Source: Dickeya solani IPO 2222 (GTDB lineage: Bacteria; Pseudomonadota; Gammaproteobacteria; Enterobacterales; Enterobacteriaceae). From it: 32,000 nt of DNA. Position 1 is the stretch's first letter; each line of letters opens with the position of its first letter. Below are positions 4,616 through 30,603 of this stretch, one piece after another. Position numbers and translations under genes: made by a program. Below the pieces are notes generated by a model, which was given only the letters and a program-made list of their open reading frames with translations, was not told the DNA's origin and ran no database searches. The stretch is taken from assembly GCF_001644705.1 (NCBI RefSeq), contig NZ_CP015137.1, positions 2,010,001-2,042,000 of the forward strand, written 5' to 3'.

Positions 4616-5824
4616 ATGGCGGAACAACGGGAGAGTAATGTGGAACAGTTTGACGTAATCATCATTGGCGCGGGCGCGGCCGGGCTGTTCTGTGCGGCGC
4701 AGGCAGGCCAGAAAGGGCTGCGGGCGCTGCTGGTGGACAACGGCAAAAAACCGGGCCGCAAGATTCTGATGTCCGGCGGCGGGCGCTGCAATTTCACCAA
4801 TTTGCACGCCGAACCCGCGGCCTACCTGTCGAACAACCCGCACTTCTGCAAATCCGCCCTTGCCCGCTACACCCAATGGGATTTCATCGATCTGGTAAAC
4901 CGTCACGGCATCGCGTATCACGAAAAAACCCTCGGCCAGTTGTTCTGCGACGACTCCGCGCAGCAGATCGTCGATATGCTGATGAAAGAGTGCGAGGCCG
5001 GTAAGGTGACGCTGCGCCTGCGCAGCGAGGTGCTGTCGGTGGAAAAGAGCGAACAGTTCCAGGTGACGCTCAACACCGGGATGGTGCAGGCGCCGGCGGT
5101 GGTGATCGCCACCGGCGGGCTATCAATGCCGGGGCTGGGTGCCACCCCGTTCGGTTATCAACTGGCGGCGCAGTTTGGCCTCAACGTGTTGCCGACCCGC
5201 GCCGCGCTGGTGCCGTTTACCCTGCACAAGCCGCTGCTGGAACAGTTGCAGACGCTCTCCGGCGTGTCGGTTCCGGCAGTGGTCACGGCTGAAAACGGCA
5301 CCACCTTCCGCGAAAATATTCTGTTTACTCACCGCGGCCTGTCCGGCCCGGCGGTCCTGCAGCTGTCCAGCTACTGGCAGCCGGGGGAATTCGTCACCAT
5401 CAATCTGTTGCCCAACCTTGATCTGACCGAATGCCTTAACAACGAACGTCTGGCACACCCGAATCAAAGCCTGAAAAACACGCTGGCGCAGTGGTTGCCG
5501 AAACGGCTGGTGGAAAGCCTGCAAGCGCTGGGGCAATTACCGGACGTCACGCTGAAACAGCTCAACAAGCCGCAACAGGCCGAAGTGGAAGCCACGCTGC
5601 AACAGTGGCGGGTCCAGCCTAACGGCACCGAAGGCTACCGCACGGCGGAAGTGACGCTCGGCGGCGTTGATACCCGCGAGCTGTCGTCAAAAACGATGGA
5701 AGCCAACAACGTGCCGGGCCTGTATTTCATCGGCGAAGTGGTGGACGTCACCGGCTGGCTCGGCGGTTACAACTTCCAGTGGGCCTGGAGCTCCGCCTGG
5801 GCGTGCGCGCAGGCGCTGGGGTAA
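4616..5824 (+). CDS. yhiN: YhiN/BaiN-family (HI0933-like) FAD-dependent oxidoreductase
   Basis: Dinucleotide-binding motif FDVIIIGAGAAGLFCA. The stretch KILMSGGGRCNFTN ... YFIGEVVDVTGWLGGYNFQWAWSSAWACAQ is colinear with E. coli YhiN. It is adjacent to pitA, as in E. coli. Confidence 0.9.
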   Translation: MAEQRESNVEQFDVIIIGAGAAGLFCAAQAGQKGLRALLVDNGKKPGRKILMSGGGRCNFTNLHAEPAAYLSNNPHFCKSALARYTQWDFIDLVNRHGIAYHEKTLGQLFCDDSAQQIVDMLMKECEAGKVTLRLRSEVLSVEKSEQFQVTLNTGMVQAPAVVIATGGLSMPGLGATPFGYQLAAQFGLNVLPTRAALVPFTLHKPLLEQLQTLSGVSVPAVVTAENGTTFRENILFTHRGLSGPAVLQLSSYWQPGEFVTINLLPNLDLTECLNNERLAHPNQSLKNTLAQWLPKRLVESLQALGQLPDVTLKQLNKPQQAEVEATLQQWRVQPNGTEGYRTAEVTLGGVDTRELSSKTMEANNVPGLYFIGEVVDVTGWLGGYNFQWAWSSAWACAQALG

Positions 5825-5918
5825 GGCTTGATCCCCGCAATGAATCCCGGAAATGGATGTATCATTGCCAGAAGATTTGTACACTGCGCAGGCGACTCAA
5901 CGTTTACCTAAGGAACGG

Positions 5919-7382
5919 ATGATGAAAATAAAGCAATTCAGGTTGCACAACGTCGGGCGCTTTACCTCTCTTGATGCCCTCATCGCGCCAACGGCTGATT
6001 ATCCTTCCAATGTAACGGTGCTGGTCGGTAACAATGGCGCTGGGAAAACCTCCATTTTGCAGGCTCTGGCGACCTCTCTCAGTTGGCTGGTGGCGCGGGT
6101 ACGCAGTGAAAAAGGCAACGGCAGCGGCATTAGCGAAGACGCCATAACCAACGCGCATACTTCCGCCGCGATTGAGATCATGGCACAAGATACTCCTCCA
6201 TTCTCAGGTCATGCTGCTGACAACGACGCTGAATATCATTGGACGCTGGCAAAAACTCGCAGCGGCAAAAAAGGGCAGCACACCAGCCAGCTTAATGCCG
6301 TTTCCACACTGGCGGACCATTACCGTACCGAGTTAACGCAAAACGAACAAAGCAGCCTGCCGTTAATCGCCTTTTATCCGGTCGAACGCAGCGTGCTGGA
6401 TATTCCACTAAAAATAAGAAATAAACACCATTTTCAACAGATAGATGGGTATGACAACGCACTCAATCAAGGGGTGGATTTCCGGCGTTTTTTCGAATGG
6501 TTTCGTGAGCGGGAAGATATTGAAAACGAAAATGATGGAGTCGTACTAACAAATCTATTTGAAAGTGACCCTGAAGGTACTCTGAAGGTTTTTGAAGATA
6601 TCGAAAATGCCAACTATCGCGTAGATAAATTGAAAGAATTTGACTTTACAGGGCTATCAGAAGAATTAAAAAAGCTCACTAACACCATGAAATTCATGCA
6701 GGATATTCGGGATAAGGCCAAAGATCCTCAACTCAACGCGGTACGCTCAGCCATTACCGCTTTTATGCCGGGCTTTTCTAATTTAAAAGTACGCCGCAAA
6801 CCCCGCCTGCATATGTCCATCAATAAAGAGGGAAGGCCGCTTAACGTGCTGCAACTGTCGCAGGGCGAAAAATCGCTGATGGCGTTGGTAGGCGATATTG
6901 CGCGTCGTCTGGCGATTATGAATCCGACGCTGGACAACCCGCTGCACGGGCAAGGCATTGTGCTGATCGATGAAGTGGATATGCACCTGCATCCGTCGTG
7001 GCAGCGCAGCATTATCGAACGGCTGACTACCACCTTCCCCAACTGCCAGTTTATTCTAACCACCCACTCGCCGCTGGTGATCAGTGATTACAAGGACGTG
7101 TTGGTGTATTCACTGGATAACGGTGAATTGACCGTGGTGCCATCCCAATACGGTCAGGATGCCAATAGCGTGTTGCTGGAGGTGATGGATACCCATATCC
7201 GTAACGCGCGAATCGCGGAAAAATTTGGTGACCTGCTGGACATGATCCAGCGCCAGCAATTAACGCCAGCCAAAGCGTTATTGGATGAACTGACCGCTGA
7301 GTTGCCCGCCACCAATCTGGAACTGACCAAAACCCGCCTATTACTGCGCAAACAGGAGTTACGCGGTGAGAAAAATCACTAA
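5919..7382 (+). CDS. ptuA: ABC/AAA15-21-type ATPase, PtuA-like (Septu ATPase component)
   Basis: Walker A is VGNNGAGKTS. The ABC signature-like motif is LSQGEKSLMALVGDIARRL. Walker B/D-loop is VLIDEVDMHLHP and the H-loop is LTTHSPLV. A charged helical insertion separates the two half-sites. AAGGA at 5910-5914 precedes ATG 5919/5922, giving MKIKQFRLHNVGRF, a typical N-terminus for this fold. The ORF-track start at 5853 is possible but has no clear RBS. Confidence 0.7.
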   Translation: MMKIKQFRLHNVGRFTSLDALIAPTADYPSNVTVLVGNNGAGKTSILQALATSLSWLVARVRSEKGNGSGISEDAITNAHTSAAIEIMAQDTPPFSGHAADNDAEYHWTLAKTRSGKKGQHTSQLNAVSTLADHYRTELTQNEQSSLPLIAFYPVERSVLDIPLKIRNKHHFQQIDGYDNALNQGVDFRRFFEWFREREDIENENDGVVLTNLFESDPEGTLKVFEDIENANYRVDKLKEFDFTGLSEELKKLTNTMKFMQDIRDKAKDPQLNAVRSAITAFMPGFSNLKVRRKPRLHMSINKEGRPLNVLQLSQGEKSLMALVGDIARRLAIMNPTLDNPLHGQGIVLIDEVDMHLHPSWQRSIIERLTTTFPNCQFILTTHSPLVISDYKDVLVYSLDNGELTVVPSQYGQDANSVLLEVMDTHIRNARIAEKFGDLLDMIQRQQLTPAKALLDELTAELPATNLELTKTRLLLRKQELRGEKNH

Positions 7383-7998
7383 AGGTACGGAACCTGCCAG
7401 CCTGACAGCCTGGAAACGCGCCAATCCCACAGGCCGGTACGACGATTTGACAGAAACCGAGCGGCAGGACATCCGTGATGCCTGCGCCAAAGAGCAGTTT
7501 TACCTGTGTGCCTACTGCTGCAAACCTATCAGCGGTGATAACAGCGACACCATGAACGAGCACGTGCAGGCACGAAAACTGGCGCCTCACCGTAGCCTCG
7601 ATTTCACCAATATTGTCGCCAGTTGCACCACGCCAAACCAGTGCGATGCCGCCCACGGTTCACAACCGTTTTCGCTTACCCCGCTGATAACGGCATGTGA
7701 AACGGAATTGCAATTTATGATTAGCGGACGCGTCAGCGGCACGACAGCACGCGCGCAGGATGCCATCCGGGTGCTTAACCTTGGCGACAATGAAACCCAT
7801 AACAAAAAGCTGATTGAGATACGTAAACAGTTTCTCGATAGCCTGTTATGGACTAACGGTATCGATCCTGACGAAGGGTTGGAAGACGACGATCTGCTAA
7901 CAGCCGTCATTAACGATTTCAGTTCCCCGCAAAACGGCAGGCTGGCGCCTTACGCACCGGTGCTGGTCAACATCCTGAGAGGATGGCTGTCGGCATAA
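7366..7998 (+). CDS. ptuB: Small HNH-type nuclease, TIGR02646-like, PtuB-like (Septu nuclease component)
   Basis: GTG start at 7366, preceded by AGGAG (7354-7358) with a 7-nt spacer. It overlaps the upstream ATPase stop (7380-7382) by 17 nt. The Cys/His-rich core is FYLCAYCCKPISGDNSDTMNEHVQARKLAPHRSLDFTNIVASC..QCDAAHG, followed by AIRVLNLGDN....L.E.R, which matches my memory of the TIGR02646 family. Confidence 0.65.
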   Translation: MRKITKGTEPASLTAWKRANPTGRYDDLTETERQDIRDACAKEQFYLCAYCCKPISGDNSDTMNEHVQARKLAPHRSLDFTNIVASCTTPNQCDAAHGSQPFSLTPLITACETELQFMISGRVSGTTARAQDAIRVLNLGDNETHNKKLIEIRKQFLDSLLWTNGIDPDEGLEDDDLLTAVINDFSSPQNGRLAPYAPVLVNILRGWLSA

Positions 7999-8034: not shown

Positions 8035-8061
8035 AAAACAACAAAGCCGCCCGAAGGCGGC
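8035..8061 (-). terminator. Rho-independent terminator of bhsA-like gene 1 (also follows ptuB)
   Basis: The minus strand reads GCCGCC-TTCG-GGCGGC followed by TTTGTTGTTTT. The stem is at 8046-8051 with 8056-8061. Confidence 0.8.
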
Positions 8062-8120
8062 CATTGCGTACGTGATACTGGTGTTAGCGAATATCGGCGT
8101 TATTTTTTATATTGATGGGA

Positions 8121-8372
8121 TTAGTTGTACAGTTCAGCCACGCCGTGCATCTGGTTTTCGCCGGAGGTAGCGGAGATGATGCGGAACGATTTGGCGCCGG
8201 CGGCACCCGCTTTTTCAGACAGGCTGGCCTGCAGACCGTCCAGCGTAGCGGCAGTCGCGCTGACGGTGCCGGCGGACAGGCTGGCGGATTGCTGTACTTC
8301 TGTCGCCGCGAAAGTGCCGAAAGAAACGGTAGCCAGGGCGATAACTGCAACAATATTTTTGATAGCGTTCAT
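8121..8372 (-). CDS. YdgH/BhsA/McbA-family (DUF1471) small secreted stress protein, paralogue 1
   Basis: MNAIKNIVAVIALATVSFGTFAA signal peptide. The C-terminal GAKSFRIISATSGENQMHGVAELYN resembles E. coli BhsA (GAKSFRITSVTG..LHGTAVIYK). I take the ATG at 8372 with AAGGA upstream. The track start at 8378 is a TTG. Confidence 0.85.
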   Translation of the reverse strand: MNAIKNIVAVIALATVSFGTFAATEVQQSASLSAGTVSATAATLDGLQASLSEKAGAAGAKSFRIISATSGENQMHGVAELYN

Positions 8373-8532
8373 GGTCAATATCCTTCACGTTGAATTCGGT
8401 TGGTTTTCTTTTTTGAAAGCGTCTTCGCTTTCGATGGAAGTGATAATAGACCTGTTAACCCGACGTTAAAACCGGGTTTATTTGCAGATATCTTTCAAAA
8501 AAAATGAATAAAAAATAACCATAAATCGACTA

Positions 8533-8570: not shown

Positions 8571-9434
8571 TTATTGCAATTCGACCCACAGCGGGTGGTG
8601 ATCGGAGCCCTGATTCTCGGTATCCGCCCAGCAACGGCGCACCGTCAGCCCCAACGATGGCGTCAACAGGCAGTGATCGATACGGCCGCCGACATTCGGA
8701 TGGGTAGAACCGCTGTTCTCCGCCTGACCGGCGGCGACCCAGGCGTCCATCAGCCCACGGTGGCGAACCAACCGGCCGTGATGCGGCGACACCGGCCCAA
8801 CCAGACGGCTGTACTCCTCGCTGTCCGGCAGGCAGTTCAAGTCCCCCATCAGGATCATCTCCAGCGGCATCAGCGGCATCCGGCCTTCGGTCCAGCCCGC
8901 GCTCGGGTCGGGATGTCCGCCGCACCAGGCACCGCCTTCATCCGGGGCGCGGGCGAAAAGCGCCAGCATCGCCTCCACCTGCGGCAAGCGGGTGTCAGCG
9001 CACAGATGACTGAGATGGGTGTTATAGACGCGGATCGCCCCGACATCGGTGTCGATCACCGTTTCCAGCACGCCTTGCTGAATAGAGTGCTGGGTCAGGG
9101 TGCCGAATTTCGGCAGCGGAAAATTGCGGCTGGAGAGAATCGGCCAGCGGGACAGCGTCAGGGTACCAAACTGGCGACGACGATTGACGACCCGGCCATC
9201 CGCCGCCACGGTGCTGGCGTCCATGTCCAGATTAGCGCCGTAGACCCAGTGGTACTCGCCCAGCAGCGCCGCCAGCTCCGCCGGTTGATCCATCATGCCG
9301 GAGCGTTGCCAGAAGCATTCCACTTCCTGCATACAGATGATATCCGCACCGCGCACTTCATCGGCGATGCGAGCCAGATCGTAGCGGCCATCGCGGCCAA
9401 GACCGTATTGAATGTTGTAGCTGACAATATGCAT
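8571..9434 (-). CDS. Endonuclease/exonuclease/phosphatase (EEP) family hydrolase
   Basis: N-terminal IVSYNIQYG and ICMQEV, and C-terminal GSDHHPLWVEL, are the hallmark EEP catalytic motifs. It is the last gene of the ABC operon. Confidence 0.85.
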   Translation of the reverse strand: MHIVSYNIQYGLGRDGRYDLARIADEVRGADIICMQEVECFWQRSGMMDQPAELAALLGEYHWVYGANLDMDASTVAADGRVVNRRRQFGTLTLSRWPILSSRNFPLPKFGTLTQHSIQQGVLETVIDTDVGAIRVYNTHLSHLCADTRLPQVEAMLALFARAPDEGGAWCGGHPDPSAGWTEGRMPLMPLEMILMGDLNCLPDSEEYSRLVGPVSPHHGRLVRHRGLMDAWVAAGQAENSGSTHPNVGGRIDHCLLTPSLGLTVRRCWADTENQGSDHHPLWVELQ

Positions 9435-15225: not shown

Positions 15226-15498
15226 TCAGTTGTACAGTTCAGCTACGCCGCGCATCTGGTTTTCGCTGCCGGTGGCGGAGATGATGCGGAACGACTTGGC
15301 GCCGGCCGCGTTCGCTTTTTCATACAGGCTGACCTGCAGACCATCCAGCGTATTGGCAGTTGCGCTGACGGTGCCGGCGGACAGGCTGGCGGATTGCTGT
15401 ACTTCAGTCGCAGTGGACGTGGACGTGGTAGCGGCGAAGGTGCCGAAAGAAACGGTAGCCAGGGCGATAACTGCAACAATATTTTTGATAGCTTTCAT
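15226..15498 (-). CDS. YdgH/BhsA/McbA-family (DUF1471) small secreted stress protein, paralogue 2
   Basis: MKAIKNIVAVIALATVSFGTFAA signal peptide and GAKSFRIISATGSENQMRGVAELYN C-terminus. It carries 7 extra residues (TTSTSTA) relative to paralogue 1. The ATG at 15498 has AAGGA upstream. Confidence 0.85.
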   Translation of the reverse strand: MKAIKNIVAVIALATVSFGTFAATTSTSTATEVQQSASLSAGTVSATANTLDGLQVSLYEKANAAGAKSFRIISATGSENQMRGVAELYN

Positions 15499-16866: not shown

Positions 16867-17922
16867 TCAGCTTTTCGACGTTTCGGCCGGTTCGCCGCAG
16901 TCCGGGCAGTAGTGGTAGAAAGCGTTTTTACGCAACCCGCAGGACGGGCACGGCGACAGCAGCTGTAAACCACAGTGCATACAAAACGCCGGGGTAACGC
17001 CGTTGTGCAGGATCAACGGACGATCGCAGCTGGGGCATTGATTGCGCGCCAGCGACGTCAACGCTGCTTCGTAATGAATCGATTCTTTGCGTTCTTCCTG
17101 CGACGCCGCCTGCTCCTGTTTCTTGCGTTCCAGATACGCCTGCAACCAGCGCAGCAGCGCCCGCCCGCCGAAATAGGTCAGCACCACCCCGACGCCGTAG
17201 CGGATGTAGCCGCCGAAACTCGGCAGATACGGCACCAGTTCGACAAAGAAGCCGAACAGGGCAAACAGAATAAACCCCCACACAAACGGCCATTGGTTGC
17301 CCTTGCGGTAACGACGAAACAGCCATAACGCCGCCAGCAGCAGCGGGCCGACAAACGCCAGCCGGATGAAAAACGCCTGCAACTCCGCCTTACGCAGCGC
17401 CTCGCCATAGCGCGCGTCCGCGTCGCCGTACAACCGGCTGACCGCCAGCGTTATCGGCGCCAGTTGAAGCCGCAACTGCGTGTGCTGTTTTTGCAGATCG
17501 GCGAGTTGTCCGTCGAGTTGCTGCTGGAGCGCCAGCAGACGATCCAGCTCATGGTTGCGCTTGATCACCTCCGGGTTCTGGTCGGACAGCTCGGTGCTGC
17601 TGCGGGTGGCGCGCCAGTTGTCGAAGCTGGCCTTGGCTTTGGCGTAATCGTTAGTCGCCATCTCGCGCGCCTCCCGCTTGTCCGCCAGCGCGTTATCCAG
17701 CGTTTCCTGCGCGGCCTGAATCGGCGCCATGCGCGCTTTCTGGGCGTCCACCGCCGTCTGGTCGATAAAGCTGCTGTGCTCCGGCTCACGGGTCAACAAC
17801 GGCAGGTCTTCCAGCACCGCGGCGCTGATCATCACCAGAAAATAGGCGAACAGCAGCGCGACAGCCCACTGCCCCATTCGAATCAGCCGTTCCGGCCCGC
17901 GTAATGGTTTGAATGCTTGCAT
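16867..17922 (-). CDS. Membrane protein with long coiled-coil segment and C-terminal double zinc ribbon (function unknown)
   Basis: TM1 is WAVALLFAYFLVMISAAVL. A helical, charged region of about 140 aa follows (QLDGQLADLQKQHTQLRLQL), then about 3 TM helices, then four CxxC pairs: CPSC..CMHC..CPSC..CPDC. GAGGG precedes the ATG. The upstream gene ends 12 nt away. Confidence 0.6.
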   Translation of the reverse strand: MQAFKPLRGPERLIRMGQWAVALLFAYFLVMISAAVLEDLPLLTREPEHSSFIDQTAVDAQKARMAPIQAAQETLDNALADKREAREMATNDYAKAKASFDNWRATRSSTELSDQNPEVIKRNHELDRLLALQQQLDGQLADLQKQHTQLRLQLAPITLAVSRLYGDADARYGEALRKAELQAFFIRLAFVGPLLLAALWLFRRYRKGNQWPFVWGFILFALFGFFVELVPYLPSFGGYIRYGVGVVLTYFGGRALLRWLQAYLERKKQEQAASQEERKESIHYEAALTSLARNQCPSCDRPLILHNGVTPAFCMHCGLQLLSPCPSCGLRKNAFYHYCPDCGEPAETSKS

Positions 17923-19074: not shown

Positions 19075-20505
19075 TTATTTCGGCAGGCGCGCCACCGCTT
19101 CGCCCCAGGTGGTGAAGGTCTGGCAGGAGAAAATCGGGTGAGCACCGTTATACAGCGGGTTGATCAACCCGGCAAAGTCGCCACCCGGCGCGCGGATATC
19201 AATGCGGCACCACGGCCAGCTCGCCAGCGGCAGCGCAACGCTCACCTCGTCGCGCCCCAGCGCATGGCGCGAAATCACCGTTCCACCCGCCACGCACTCC
19301 GCGACGTAACCCGGCCGATCGTCTTCGATGGCGAGGGTCGCCTGAACCGTGCGCGCGCCGACATTCTGCCCCGGCAGGACGTCGCCGTCGTCGAACCGGA
19401 AACGCAGGCCGCACTGCCGGTCGATATACACCCGGCCTTGCCGCAAGCCATGCAAAATGGCGTCACCGCTCAGGCCGTGGGCAAACACCAGCGTCGTCGG
19501 ATCGCCGTACACCGAAGGTTGGGTGGCGCCGTCATAGCGTTCGTCCGGTCGCAGATGGCAATCGCTGCCGCCGACGGCGGCGATGCGCCAGCCGCCGTTC
19601 CACAACGTGCTCAGCAGCTGCAACGCCCGCTCGGTGGCGGCGGCCGACGTCGGCCAGGTCGGGTCGCAGCACACCTCCAGCGTGTTAATGCGCGCCAGCG
19701 GCATCGCCGCATACTGCCAGTGCCACGGCGGCATCATCGGATGGTTGATGCTGATGTTGCCGTCGCCCGTCACATTCAGCGACAGCCCCTGGCGGACCAG
19801 CGTTTCCGGCGCCATGTCCCCGTCTTCCGGCGTCAGCACCCGGCGCGGGCCGTGCACATTGAAGTGGCCGATATCGGTGGTCACCTCCAGCGCGGGCAGG
19901 AACAGGGTACGGCCTCCGGTCGGCAGCGCCGGGTGGCACAGGTTATGTTCGGTCAGGAACAGAAAATCAAGCTGCTGCTCTTGCGCCAGCGCCACCGCCG
20001 CCGCCAGGCTGTTGTGCCCGTCCGACAGCCGGGTGTGAGCGTGCAGGTCACCGCGATACCAGCGGGAAGCCGGTTCAAAGCAGGCGGAATAGTCGAAACA
20101 CACCTGATGATCGCCGCGCAGCGCCACCGTCAGCAGCATCTCATCCGGCGGCGGCAACGGCGGGTCGAACGCCACCGTGATCTGGTAATCCGCTTGCGTC
20201 GGATGACTGGCCTGCGCCGGAATGCTGCACAGCACCAGCCGCCACGCCCCCGCAGGCAGCGGTCCCGGTATGCCGCCCAACGGCAGCGCCCGCCGTGCGG
20301 CGATGGTTACCGACTTGGCGGCCGGCTCCATCAGCAGGTTGGCGCGCAGTTGCTGGCGGGCATCGTAGACAAACGCGTACAGGTAGCTTTTGTTGCGGTT
20401 GTGCGCGGTCAGGGTCAGGCAGTCGATCCCTTCCGGCACGGTAAACGCCACCTGCCCGCGGCCTGTCGTCAGGCAACCGGCAAGGGTCAGCTCCGGCTTA
20501 TTCAT
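19075..20505 (-). CDS. PHP-domain metallohydrolase (CehA/McbA-like) with N-terminal beta-rich domain
   Basis: PHP signature WYRGDLHAHTRLSDGHNS...FLFLTEHN...GGSDCH. Its ATG (20505) overlaps the upstream SBP stop (20498-20500) by 8 nt, so it is co-transcribed with the ABC genes. Confidence 0.8.
   Translation of the reverse strand: MNKPELTLAGCLTTGRGQVAFTVPEGIDCLTLTAHNRNKSYLYAFVYDARQQLRANLLMEPAAKSVTIAARRALPLGGIPGPLPAGAWRLVLCSIPAQASHPTQADYQITVAFDPPLPPPDEMLLTVALRGDHQVCFDYSACFEPASRWYRGDLHAHTRLSDGHNSLAAAVALAQEQQLDFLFLTEHNLCHPALPTGGRTLFLPALEVTTDIGHFNVHGPRRVLTPEDGDMAPETLVRQGLSLNVTGDGNISINHPMMPPWHWQYAAMPLARINTLEVCCDPTWPTSAAATERALQLLSTLWNGGWRIAAVGGSDCHLRPDERYDGATQPSVYGDPTTLVFAHGLSGDAILHGLRQGRVYIDRQCGLRFRFDDGDVLPGQNVGARTVQATLAIEDDRPGYVAECVAGGTVISRHALGRDEVSVALPLASWPWCRIDIRAPGGDFAGLINPLYNGAHPIFSCQTFTTWGEAVARLPK

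Positions 20506-30526: not shown

Positions 30527-30603
<77 letters not shown>

Follow-up and report, generated by a model that had tools for sequence, protein, structure and literature searches.

A probable stand-alone type I Septu anti-phage system of the Ec-B88 subfamily downstream of yhiN in Dickeya solani

The 32,000-nucleotide stretch of Dickeya solani IPO 2222 DNA analysed here (the window; contig NZ_CP015137.1, positions 2,010,001 to 2,042,000 of the forward strand) carries an intact two-gene Septu pair, ptuA and ptuB, in the same orientation as the yhiN gene upstream and convergent with a small bhsA-like gene downstream. The features on which the following account relies are, in window coordinates:

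4640-5824, plus strand: yhiN, FAD oxidoreductase of the BaiN/RdsA family (Pfam HI0933_like/FAD_binding_2), the conserved upstream flank
5851-5885, plus strand: conserved non-coding block AAATGGATGTATCATTGCCAGAAGATTTGTACACT upstream of ptuA, a candidate promoter or operator
5922-7382, plus strand: ptuA, ABC/SMC-type ATPase of 486 aa (PADLOC, Pfam and PDB matches)
6027-6050, plus strand: Walker A motif GNNGAGKT with Lys42 (aa 36-43), invariant in 45 homologues
6528-6719, plus strand: hypervariable helical insert (aa 203-266), class alpha, the core of an AT-rich stretch
6855-6869, plus strand: ABC signature LSQGE (aa 312-316), invariant in 45 homologues
6969-6980, plus strand: Walker B motif DEVD with Asp350 and the catalytic Glu351 (aa 350-353), invariant in 45 homologues
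7065-7073, plus strand: H-loop HSP with His382 (aa 382-384), invariant in 45 homologues
7354-7358, plus strand: AGGAG ribosome-binding site of ptuB, read in the sequence, inside the 3' end of ptuA
7366-7998, plus strand: ptuB, HNH nuclease with a C-terminal helical domain, 210 aa, GTG start (PADLOC, AF2, Foldseek)
7507-7656, plus strand: HNH/zinc-finger core of PtuB (Cys48, Cys51, His66, Asn82, Cys87, Cys93, Asp94, His97), invariant in 58 homologues
8045-8062, minus strand: GC-rich hairpin terminator, with a T-run on the minus strand and no T tract on the plus strand
8127-8378, minus strand: bhsA/ydgH-like gene for a small secreted protein (Pfam YdgH_BhsA-like), the downstream flank

An earlier reading made from the letters of the window (the sequence-only reading) had described an ATPase open reading frame of 487-509 aa followed by one of 210 aa, and both are as described. 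The longest ptuA frame runs from 5853 to 7382 (509 aa) and offers an alternative ATG at 5919. The true start is likely ATG 5922 (or 5919), giving a protein of 486-487 aa, because an AAGGA (5910-5914) precedes 5922 by 7 nt, the PADLOC alignment begins at that methionine, and forms of 486 and 487 aa both exist in databases. Direct reading confirms the GTG start of ptuB at 7366 with AGGAG upstream, and the reported 17-nt overlap of the two genes, which arises because the ptuA stop codon TAA occupies 7380-7382. The two genes are predicted to be translationally coupled within one operon, and their adjacent, co-oriented arrangement recurs in every related locus.

Only about 95 nt separate yhiN from ptuA, and about 120 nt lie downstream of the pair. 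The 5851-5885 block in the upstream gap is nearly invariant between Dickeya and Pectobacterium, whereas the neighbouring intergenic DNA differs, and it is missing upstream of the E. coli homologue. A consensus scan for a sigma-70 promoter upstream of ptuA gave no match, and the block was accordingly rejected as such a promoter; a role as an RNA structure found no support either (fold z=+1.2). The hairpin at 8045-8062 is kept in D. zeae and in the remnant site of D. lacustris described below. Its T-run lies on the minus strand, which makes it a terminator mainly for the convergent bhsA-like gene, although it possibly acts in both directions. Of the proposed setting of the pair between yhiN and a strong terminator, the yhiN side stands, whereas the terminator belongs in the first place to the neighbouring gene.

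The analysis shows to which family the two proteins belong and how they fold, that their catalytic residues are intact and under purifying selection, that retron parts are lacking, and how the locus has evolved. PtuA matches the PADLOC PtuA profile (PDLC00271) with E=2.6e-167 over profile positions 1-420 of 421, and Pfam AAA_21, AAA_23 and AAA_15 all score above their gathering thresholds. The top 50 Foldseek matches of its AF2 model (pLDDT 79) are all PtuA chains, the closest in the PDB being those of retron Ec83, retron Ec78 and Septu. All four ATPase motifs noted previously (Walker A, signature, Walker B and H-loop) are found, and dN/dS of ptuA is 0.15-0.20. Some database records label this protein 'recombination protein F'.

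PtuB matches the corresponding PADLOC profile (PDLC00344) with E=1.9e-100 over positions 1-212 of 213, and a Pfam search of this protein returned no match. Its AF2 model (pLDDT 91.9) retrieves PtuB chains as the top 11 PDB matches (9n69_F, 8eea_G, 9nnh_K, 9e90_B; TM 0.6-0.69) and then Cas9 HNH domains, in agreement with a beta-beta-alpha-metal fold. The dN/dS of ptuB is 0.09-0.16. The proposal that the locus belongs to the Septu PtuA/PtuB family, which the sequence-only reading had suggested checking by a PADLOC/HMM search, is thus borne out by the profile matches and by the predicted folds.

The motifs listed earlier for PtuB (CAYCC, NEH, ASC...C..AH and VLNLGDN) are likewise all present; H66, N82 and H97 are the HNH residues, and C48, C51, C87 and C93 the zinc-binding cysteines. 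For the family to which they had been likened, TIGR02646 (retron system putative HNH endonuclease subfamily), the score of 48.1 bits (E=1.2e-12) falls just under the curated cut-off of 52.15 bits. The identical protein is still listed by NCBI and UniRef as a 'TIGR02646 family protein'. The suspicion of a divergent subtype, based on the tail of the HNH region (C87...C93-D94...H97), has to be given up: this tail is invariant across the subfamily, including the experimentally validated E. coli system Ec-B88, and is therefore no mark of an odd subtype.

Ec-B88 is the Septu system of E. coli JBBDAGI-19-0041 (PtuA WP_000981116.1; PMC13096335, Supplementary Data 8). It protects against Demerecviridae and T4/T6, cuts tRNA-Tyr in its variable loop, and needs PtuA K43 and D316 as well as PtuB H75 and N91, the substitutions K43A (Walker A) and D316A (Walker B) abolishing defence (PMC13096335). 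The D. solani proteins share 65.8% (PtuA) and 61.4% (PtuB) identity with it over their full length, are encoded by two overlapping genes lacking a reverse transcriptase (RT), and match the same PADLOC models. Lys42, the Walker B Asp, His66 and Asn82 align with the essential residues of Ec-B88 (His66 with His75, Asn82 with Asn91). The E. coli pair is likewise chromosomal: 276 out of 5426 complete genomes of this species carry it, flanked by smrB and the yfc fimbrial operon. Differences also exist. In D. solani, the insertion of PtuA has 31-32 additional residues and no sequence relationship to that of Ec-B88 (variable segment of 63 versus 32 aa), PtuB lacks 9 residues near its N-terminus, and the pair occupies another chromosomal site, with an upstream block that E. 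coli lacks.

We therefore regard the locus, with a probability of about 0.85, as a type I Septu that stands alone, is functional against phages and belongs with Ec-B88 in one subfamily. Septu as such is already well known, a system of 66% identity has been characterised, and PADLOC would flag the locus; a literature search combining Dickeya and Septu returned no evidently relevant title. What is gained is that the Septu of Dickeya and Pectobacterium can be placed in the clade of Ec-B88, a tRNA-Tyr-cleaving clade that lies nearest to the type I-A retron effectors; this placement bears on the use of phages for biocontrol of these pathogens of potato and crops.

In such a system, oligomers of PtuA would hold PtuB through the C-terminal helical domain of PtuA. 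The C-terminal helices of PtuA and the C-terminal helical domain of PtuB are present and conserved in alignments and AF2 models, and the same elements mediate binding in solved complexes (PMC12819146), so that a PtuA-PtuB complex may be expected here as well. Phage infection would then provide the presumed trigger, activating the complex, and the PtuB nuclease would halt phage growth; both ATPase and HNH activity would be needed. By homology to Ec-B88, the most likely target would be the variable loop of host tRNA-Tyr, with translation arrest as the outcome, a call that comes from the relative, as sequence alone cannot reveal a target. The behaviour of the D. solani system may differ from that of Ec-B88, given 61-66% identity and a helical insert longer by 31-32 aa.

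The alternative that survives best concerns the target. The Septu system of strain ATCC 25922 (PDB 8EE4/8EE7/8EEA) and the original Bacillus Septu resemble the D. solani pair in being stand-alone combinations of an ATPase and an HNH protein with the same folds, and the ATCC 25922 system is described as a DNase that ATP inhibits and whose PtuA is a hexamer devoid of a helical flap (PMC12819146, PMC12475279) that nicks or degrades DNA (PMC12819146). The D. solani pair could act in the same way, a PtuA hexamer with PtuB being held inactive by ATP and nicking or degrading phage DNA as ATP falls. Apart from the shared layout and folds, with 8eea and 8ee4 among the structural matches, this would fit the structural proximity of the PtuB HNH to the DNA-cleaving HNH domain of Cas9 and the nicking of plasmid DNA in vitro by retron-released Ec78 PtuAB (PMC12819146). 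Known PtuAB modules do vary in target, as that of retron Eco7 hits tRNA-Tyr and that of Eco4 has no tRNA target (PMC11555353). However, ATCC 25922 PtuA is a distant relative, with 22-24% identity in fold alignments (22% for the chain ranked 48th by fold) and a phmmer match of 105 bits restricted to the C-terminal 170 residues, whereas the 66%-identical Ec-B88 cleaves tRNA-Tyr. Moreover, a long helical-flap insertion is reported to block hexameric assembly in retron PtuA (PMC12819146). DNA cleavage is thus unlikely, if still a serious competitor to the Septu of Ec-B88 type favoured here.

Within ptuA, the segment encoding aa 203-266 stands apart. Relative to D. zeae it shows 17-36% amino acid identity and pS of 0.65-0.82, as opposed to 90-100% identity and pS of 0.2-0.45 in the flanking parts of the gene. 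Three unrelated classes of the segment occur across Dickeya and Pectobacterium; classes coexist within single Dickeya species, and two of the three are found in both genera. D. solani has class alpha, D. zeae and P. versatile have class beta, and P. carotovorum has class gamma, whereas the form in Ec-B88 is short. The AT-richer centre of the gene noticed previously at about 6400-6720 is real, with GC falling to 0.40-0.43 between about 6300 and 6750 from a flanking level of about 0.6, yet it reflects this intragenic hypervariable segment and is no sign of a foreign cassette. An effect of Lys/Asn/Glu-rich composition was rejected because GC3 is low too (0.34 in the segment, 0.57-0.63 in the cores of ptuA).

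The segment is helical in the AF2 model and aligns with the helical-flap region of Ec78 PtuA (PMC12819146). A second variable loop of PtuA lies at aa ~60-120. Both variable elements map to parts with which retron PtuA grips msDNA, namely the helical flap and the m loop, which suggests that stand-alone systems could read a phage-derived ligand in the same groove. The insert may thus be a specificity or sensing element. It is tempting, though tentative and on balance rather doubtful, to go further and see in the insert and the aa ~60-120 loop a surface for trigger or ligand recognition, whose classes would represent an ancient balanced polymorphism selected by phages and recombined across species and genera. 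If this is true, a segment swap would re-target Septu to other phages, and such a short, naturally swappable segment makes phage sensing by stand-alone Septu directly testable. A literature search for a described hypervariable region in PtuA found none.

The flanking pitA-yhiN arrangement is kept in at least 16 other Enterobacterales loci. Comparison of the junction downstream of yhiN, another check proposed at the outset, places the pair at this site in most Dickeya and Pectobacterium species, whose loci were located through exact protein matches, whereas it is absent in Musicola, Lonsdalea and at least 16 other Enterobacterales. The D. lacustris site, considered as a pristine empty site, was rejected in this role, as it retains the last ~70 nt of ptuB and hence is a deletion scar. 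The two genes are thus dispensable and no universally conserved core genes. Their dS values of 0.49-0.59 are close to that of yhiN (0.61), and their protein-level evolution is about twice as fast as that of their neighbours. GC3 of ptuA and ptuB is 0.55-0.61 versus 0.74-0.80 in the flanks. Foreign origin of the whole cassette on grounds of AT-richness was nevertheless rejected, since in each host the extreme is confined to ~130 codons in the middle of ptuA, and a phage-borne origin found only weak matches (31-35% identity in three phage records). Because dS matches that of yhiN and the AT-rich extreme is confined to the centre of ptuA, recent acquisition was rejected: the pair is an old resident of this bacterial family that co-diverged with yhiN. 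The horizontally acquired cassette of the sequence-only reading is therefore true only on a deep time scale, in view of this co-divergence and of the D. lacustris scar.

Long vertical retention at a site outside any defence island is less typical of defence genes. Distant members of the clade are found in typical defence contexts, i.e. inside type I restriction-modification (R-M) operons or next to an OLD-family nuclease and an integrase. Persistence at a fixed chromosomal site would be accounted for if the pair were a domesticated housekeeping module, for instance in DNA repair or tRNA turnover, a notion also compatible with its presence in many species of both genera, its yhiN-like dS, purifying selection, the conserved upstream block, and the 'recombination protein F' label. 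This explanation is improbable, however, for genes that have been deleted in D. lacustris and are absent from Musicola, Lonsdalea and at least 16 other Enterobacterales, that evolve about twice as fast as their neighbours at the protein level, that carry trans-species allelic classes typical of immune genes, and whose close relatives reside in R-M operons and defence islands, one of them having been shown to defend. With the locus taken as Septu, it exemplifies how genes for defence can stay at one fixed place in the chromosome and be inherited vertically over long times, up to a clean deletion scar in one species.

Type I-A retron effectors (Ec78/Eco7, Ec83/Eco4, 9N69) provide the closest solved structures for both proteins. 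Retron Ec83 and 9N69 share the LSQGEK-type signature, a helical insertion of similar length is found at the helical-flap position, and Eco7 PtuAB targets tRNA-Tyr (PMC11555353), as does Ec-B88. The D. solani system differs in having no RT, no msr-msd and no PtuA N-terminal extension, the part that binds RT and ncRNA (PMC12819146), and identity is only 26-32%. Type I-A retrons also go by the name of 'Septu type II', and it is the absence of RT and ncRNA that sets type I Septu apart. The stand-alone nature proposed earlier is upheld, as no gene with an RVT domain is present among the called genes within 10 kb on each side, and Rfam gave no match, whether searched at the gathering threshold or relaxed to E<=1. 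Retron identity was rejected on these grounds together with NCBIfam equivalogs below cut-off (NF041760 for PtuA, 363.5 vs 500 bits; NF041761 for PtuB, 133 vs 150). The pair as what is left, namely the effector module, of a type I-A retron that decayed and lost its RT and ncRNA, to which the Ec83 and Ec78 PtuA matches (E=1e-62; Foldseek ranks 1-47), the additional hits to PADLOC models ATPase_I-A and HNH_I-A and the retron-like length of the insertion might point, is very improbable, considering that alignments begin at retron residues 63-86 against query residues 3-29, so that the RT/ncRNA-binding extension is missing, that the NCBIfam scores fall short, that neither RT nor ncRNA occurs here or at nine related loci, distant ones included, that only ~95 nt lie between yhiN and ptuA, and that the whole subfamily, functional Ec-B88 included, is stand-alone.

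PARIS (AriA/AriB) and OLD/Gabija-type systems also combine an ATPase of the same broad ABC family, as sensor or scaffold, with a nuclease, and AriA and OLD are weak PDB matches to PtuA. They differ in that their nuclease is of the Toprim and not of the HNH type, and their profile scores are far weaker than those of PtuA. Xenorhabdus carries a PARIS system at its site downstream of yhiN.

The two genes proposed for this locus by the sequence-only reading, an ABC-type ATPase gene (ptuA) and an HNH nuclease gene (ptuB), are present as described, and all the motifs quoted for their products were found:

5853-7382, + strand, long ptuA open reading frame, 509 aa
7366, + strand, GTG start of ptuB, preceded by AGGAG at 7354-7358

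The ptuA stop codon (7380-7382) leaves an overlap of 17 nt with ptuB. The probable start of ptuA is ATG 5922, with a second ATG adjacent at 5919, since AAGGA at 5910-5914 can be read 7 nt 5' of ATG 5922, the PADLOC profile alignment of PtuA begins at the Met encoded there, and 486- and 487-aa forms both occur in public records. A ~35-nt block upstream of ptuA (5851-5885), which overlaps the spurious ATG at 5853, hardly differs between Dickeya and Pectobacterium; it has no counterpart in E. coli and no match to the sigma-70 consensus, and the RNA structure looked for within it was not supported. Downstream, the supposed strong terminator is a real hairpin (8045-8062), but its T-run lies on the minus strand, so that it primarily serves the convergent bhsA-like gene (- strand).

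Profiles and folds support assignment of the pair as a stand-alone Septu PtuA/PtuB locus, and every test run agrees with it. Both proteins match PADLOC profiles over their full length (PtuA, PDLC00271, E=2.6e-167; PtuB, PDLC00344, E=1.9e-100). Pfam domains AAA_21, AAA_23 and AAA_15 were found in PtuA and none in PtuB, which scores 48.1 against TIGR02646 (cut-off 52.15). The PtuA model (pLDDT 79) has PtuA chains as its PDB matches 1-50. For PtuB, an AlphaFold2 model built from a 58-sequence alignment (pLDDT 91.9) has as its 11 best PDB matches the PtuB chains of E. coli Septu (8EEA) and of type I-A retrons (TM 0.6-0.69), followed by Cas9 HNH domains. This result speaks for the beta-beta-alpha-metal fold that the sequence-only reading required. 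Residues C48, C51, N64, E65, H66, N82, S86, C87, C93, D94 and H97 are invariant in the 58 homologues. The TTPNQCDAAHG tail, previously taken as a possible sign of a divergent subtype, is thus the norm of its subfamily, comprising a second zinc-ligand pair and the final His of the HNH motif. The HNH domain is not that of a divergent subtype; the D. solani system is a member of the subfamily of Septu Ec-B88, a characterised E. coli pair.

This subfamily is nearer to type I-A retron effectors than to canonical Septu. The solved structures nearest to PtuA in both sequence and fold are the PtuA proteins of retrons Ec83 and Ec78 and of 9N69 (E about 1e-62 to 1e-50; Foldseek ranks 1-47), whereas the canonical Septu PtuA of ATCC 25922 is far more distant (105 bits, C-terminal part only; Foldseek rank 48). 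The NCBIfam retron-Ec78 equivalogs also match, below their cut-offs (363.5 vs 500 for PtuA, 133 vs 150 for PtuB). A retron at this locus is nevertheless rejected. As already noted from the sequence, reverse transcriptase and msr/msd-like elements are lacking: no reverse transcriptase domain was found in called genes within 10 kb either side of the pair, and a search of the locus against Rfam gave no match, including at E<=1. There is little flanking space (~95 nt upstream, ~120 nt downstream), and PtuA is devoid of the N-terminal extension through which retron PtuA binds reverse transcriptase and ncRNA (PMC12819146).

Of 5426 complete E. coli genomes, 276 proved in a DNA search to carry a pair with ~70% DNA identity, located in each case between smrB and the yfc fimbrial operon (protein identity to D. 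solani 65.8% for PtuA, 61.4% for PtuB). This pair has K43, D316, H75 and N91 exactly where Septu Ec-B88 was mutated, and its identity with Ec-B88 is confirmed by the sequence of Ec-B88 PtuA (WP_000981116.1, beginning MMNIRTLKLTNLGRFEELEVHL; Supplementary Data 8, PMC13096335). Given the activity of Ec-B88 and 61-66% identity, an Ec-B88-type mechanism is by analogy the most likely one for D. solani, in which PtuAB would cleave tRNA-Tyr within its variable loop. A caveat is that targets differ between PtuAB systems: Eco7 acts on tRNA-Tyr and ATCC 25922 Septu on DNA, and no tRNA target was seen for Eco4 (PMC11555353, PMC12819146). The D. solani pair thus adds a member to a known Septu type, and its interest rests mainly on an old, scar-documented history and on a hypervariable PtuA segment that occurs in three classes.

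The AT-rich centre reported for ptuA is evident (GC 0.40-0.43 around 6300-6750, vs ~0.6 in the flanks). In an alignment of 45 PtuA sequences, the ATPase core and C-terminus are strongly conserved and the central segment is variable, in its sequence as well as its length. Between D. solani and D. zeae, residues ~200-265 show 17-36% amino-acid identity and saturated pS (0.65-0.82), with a GC content of 0.35 in D. solani, vs 90-100%, 0.2-0.45 and 0.5-0.58 in flanking windows. GC3 is also low in the segment (0.32-0.42, vs 0.53-0.63 in cores, in 4/4 hosts examined), so that its composition is more than an amino-acid effect. Core identity follows taxonomy (85-97% in Dickeya, 90-93% in Pectobacterium, 78-85% between them), whereas the segment falls into three classes across Pectobacteriaceae with only 14-34% mutual identity:

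Classes of the hypervariable PtuA segment
alpha: D. solani, one D. dadantii sequence, one D. chrysanthemi sequence
beta: D. zeae, D. oryzae, D. fangzhongdai, D. dianthicola, another D. dadantii sequence, several Pectobacterium
gamma: another D. chrysanthemi sequence, P. polaris, P. carotovorum

Different classes are found in a pair of D. dadantii PtuA proteins whose cores are 97% identical; balancing selection or recombination may maintain the classes. In the PtuA model the segment is helical, as part of an all-helical insertion (residues 187-281), and aligns nearly gap-free with Ec78 PtuA residues ~250-305. These span the helical flap (261-274), which in the retron wraps around msDNA and brings about the tetramerisation of PtuAB once released, and which is reported as deleted in canonical stand-alone PtuA (PMC12819146). 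A second, milder variable region (aa ~60-120, positions 6099-6281; pN 0.35-0.38 vs P. versatile) has raised pN with normal pS, includes a low-confidence loop of the model (aa 94-100), and falls where the msDNA contacts of the retron m loop lie (Lys119, Arg126 and Arg163 of Ec78). Both elements would line the groove and could form a recognition surface of PtuA. No description of such a hypervariable region was found in the papers searched.

Although accessory at the family level, the pair has long been resident, passed on vertically and maintained by selection. It follows yhiN in D. zeae, P. versatile and P. carotovorum, all contigs examined with an identical YhiN carry it, and homologous proteins are recorded for D. 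dadantii 3937, D. dianthicola, D. fangzhongdai, D. chrysanthemi, D. oryzae and several other Pectobacterium species. No such pair follows yhiN in Musicola paradisiaca, Lonsdalea quercina or, among the matches listed, 16 other Enterobacterales. The cassette of the sequence-only reading would be an ancient insertion; the pair is not a recent one. PtuA and PtuB identities (83.2% and 87.6% to D. zeae, 73.1% and 79.9% to P. versatile) track the host tree as do those of PitA and YhiN (92.4% and 91.9%, 84.4% and 84.5%), with about 2x faster divergence. Synonymous divergence from D. zeae is alike for ptuA (0.59), ptuB (0.49) and yhiN (0.61), and dN/dS of the pair is 0.09-0.20. In D. lacustris (CP114280.1, comparison locus L098:5686-5760), ~70 nt aligning to the last ptuB codons (positions 7927-7998) directly follow the yhiN stop; next come the terminator seen in D. 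solani and the bhsA-like gene. The junction is a ~2.1-kb deletion scar, with loss of ptuA and most of ptuB, indicating that the pair was already in the Dickeya ancestor.

Distant members of the clade (59-65% identity) are likewise stand-alone, in classic defence contexts. In Psychrobacter (locus L101:536-11373) and Nitrosomonas (L102:2492-12892), PtuAB lies between hsdS and hsdR inside type I restriction-modification operons; on Enterobacter plasmids (H13-H15) the match overlaps a gene annotated as a type I restriction S subunit; and in Burkholderia the pair adjoins an OLD-family nuclease, and an integrase lies a few kb from it. ABC-ATPase defence systems may repeatedly settle at the site downstream of yhiN, since in Xenorhabdus sp. 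PB62.4 (L007:9422-11402, minus strand) PARIS AriA/AriB (PADLOC E=4.9e-42 and 1.5e-19) lies ~1.2 kb downstream of yhiN, with one 312-aa ORF of no given family in between.

In D. dadantii subsp. dieffenbachiae, WP_081642532.1 (P0132) joins PtuA(1-486) and PtuB(6-210) in frame in a single 691-aa chain, present on 2 contigs. Its junction (...GEKNH|KGTEP, equivalent to ~7378-7385) is consistent with loss of the one T in the TAA stop codon of ptuA within the 17-nt overlap, and the protein may represent either a natural single-chain Septu or an error in sequencing. Elsewhere in the window, tRNA-Pro (CGG; 30527-30603, - strand) is the sole RNA gene found, with no integrase-like neighbour among the ORFs scanned. 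Two ORFs (16867-17922 and 19075-20505, both - strand; 351 and 476 aa) have no Pfam (E<=1e-5) or PADLOC match, and the remaining genes encode transporters, regulators, a histidine phosphatase and a sulfatase. A second bhsA/ydgH-like paralogue (~15226-15498, - strand; L001:19374-19646) is 84% identical to the copy flanking Septu (8127-8378). Beside bhsA, an exo/endonuclease-phosphatase-family gene (8571-9434) is split into 89- and 198-aa ORFs in D. solani CP051459.1 (L084:9932-10794), probably through a frameshift or as a pseudogene.
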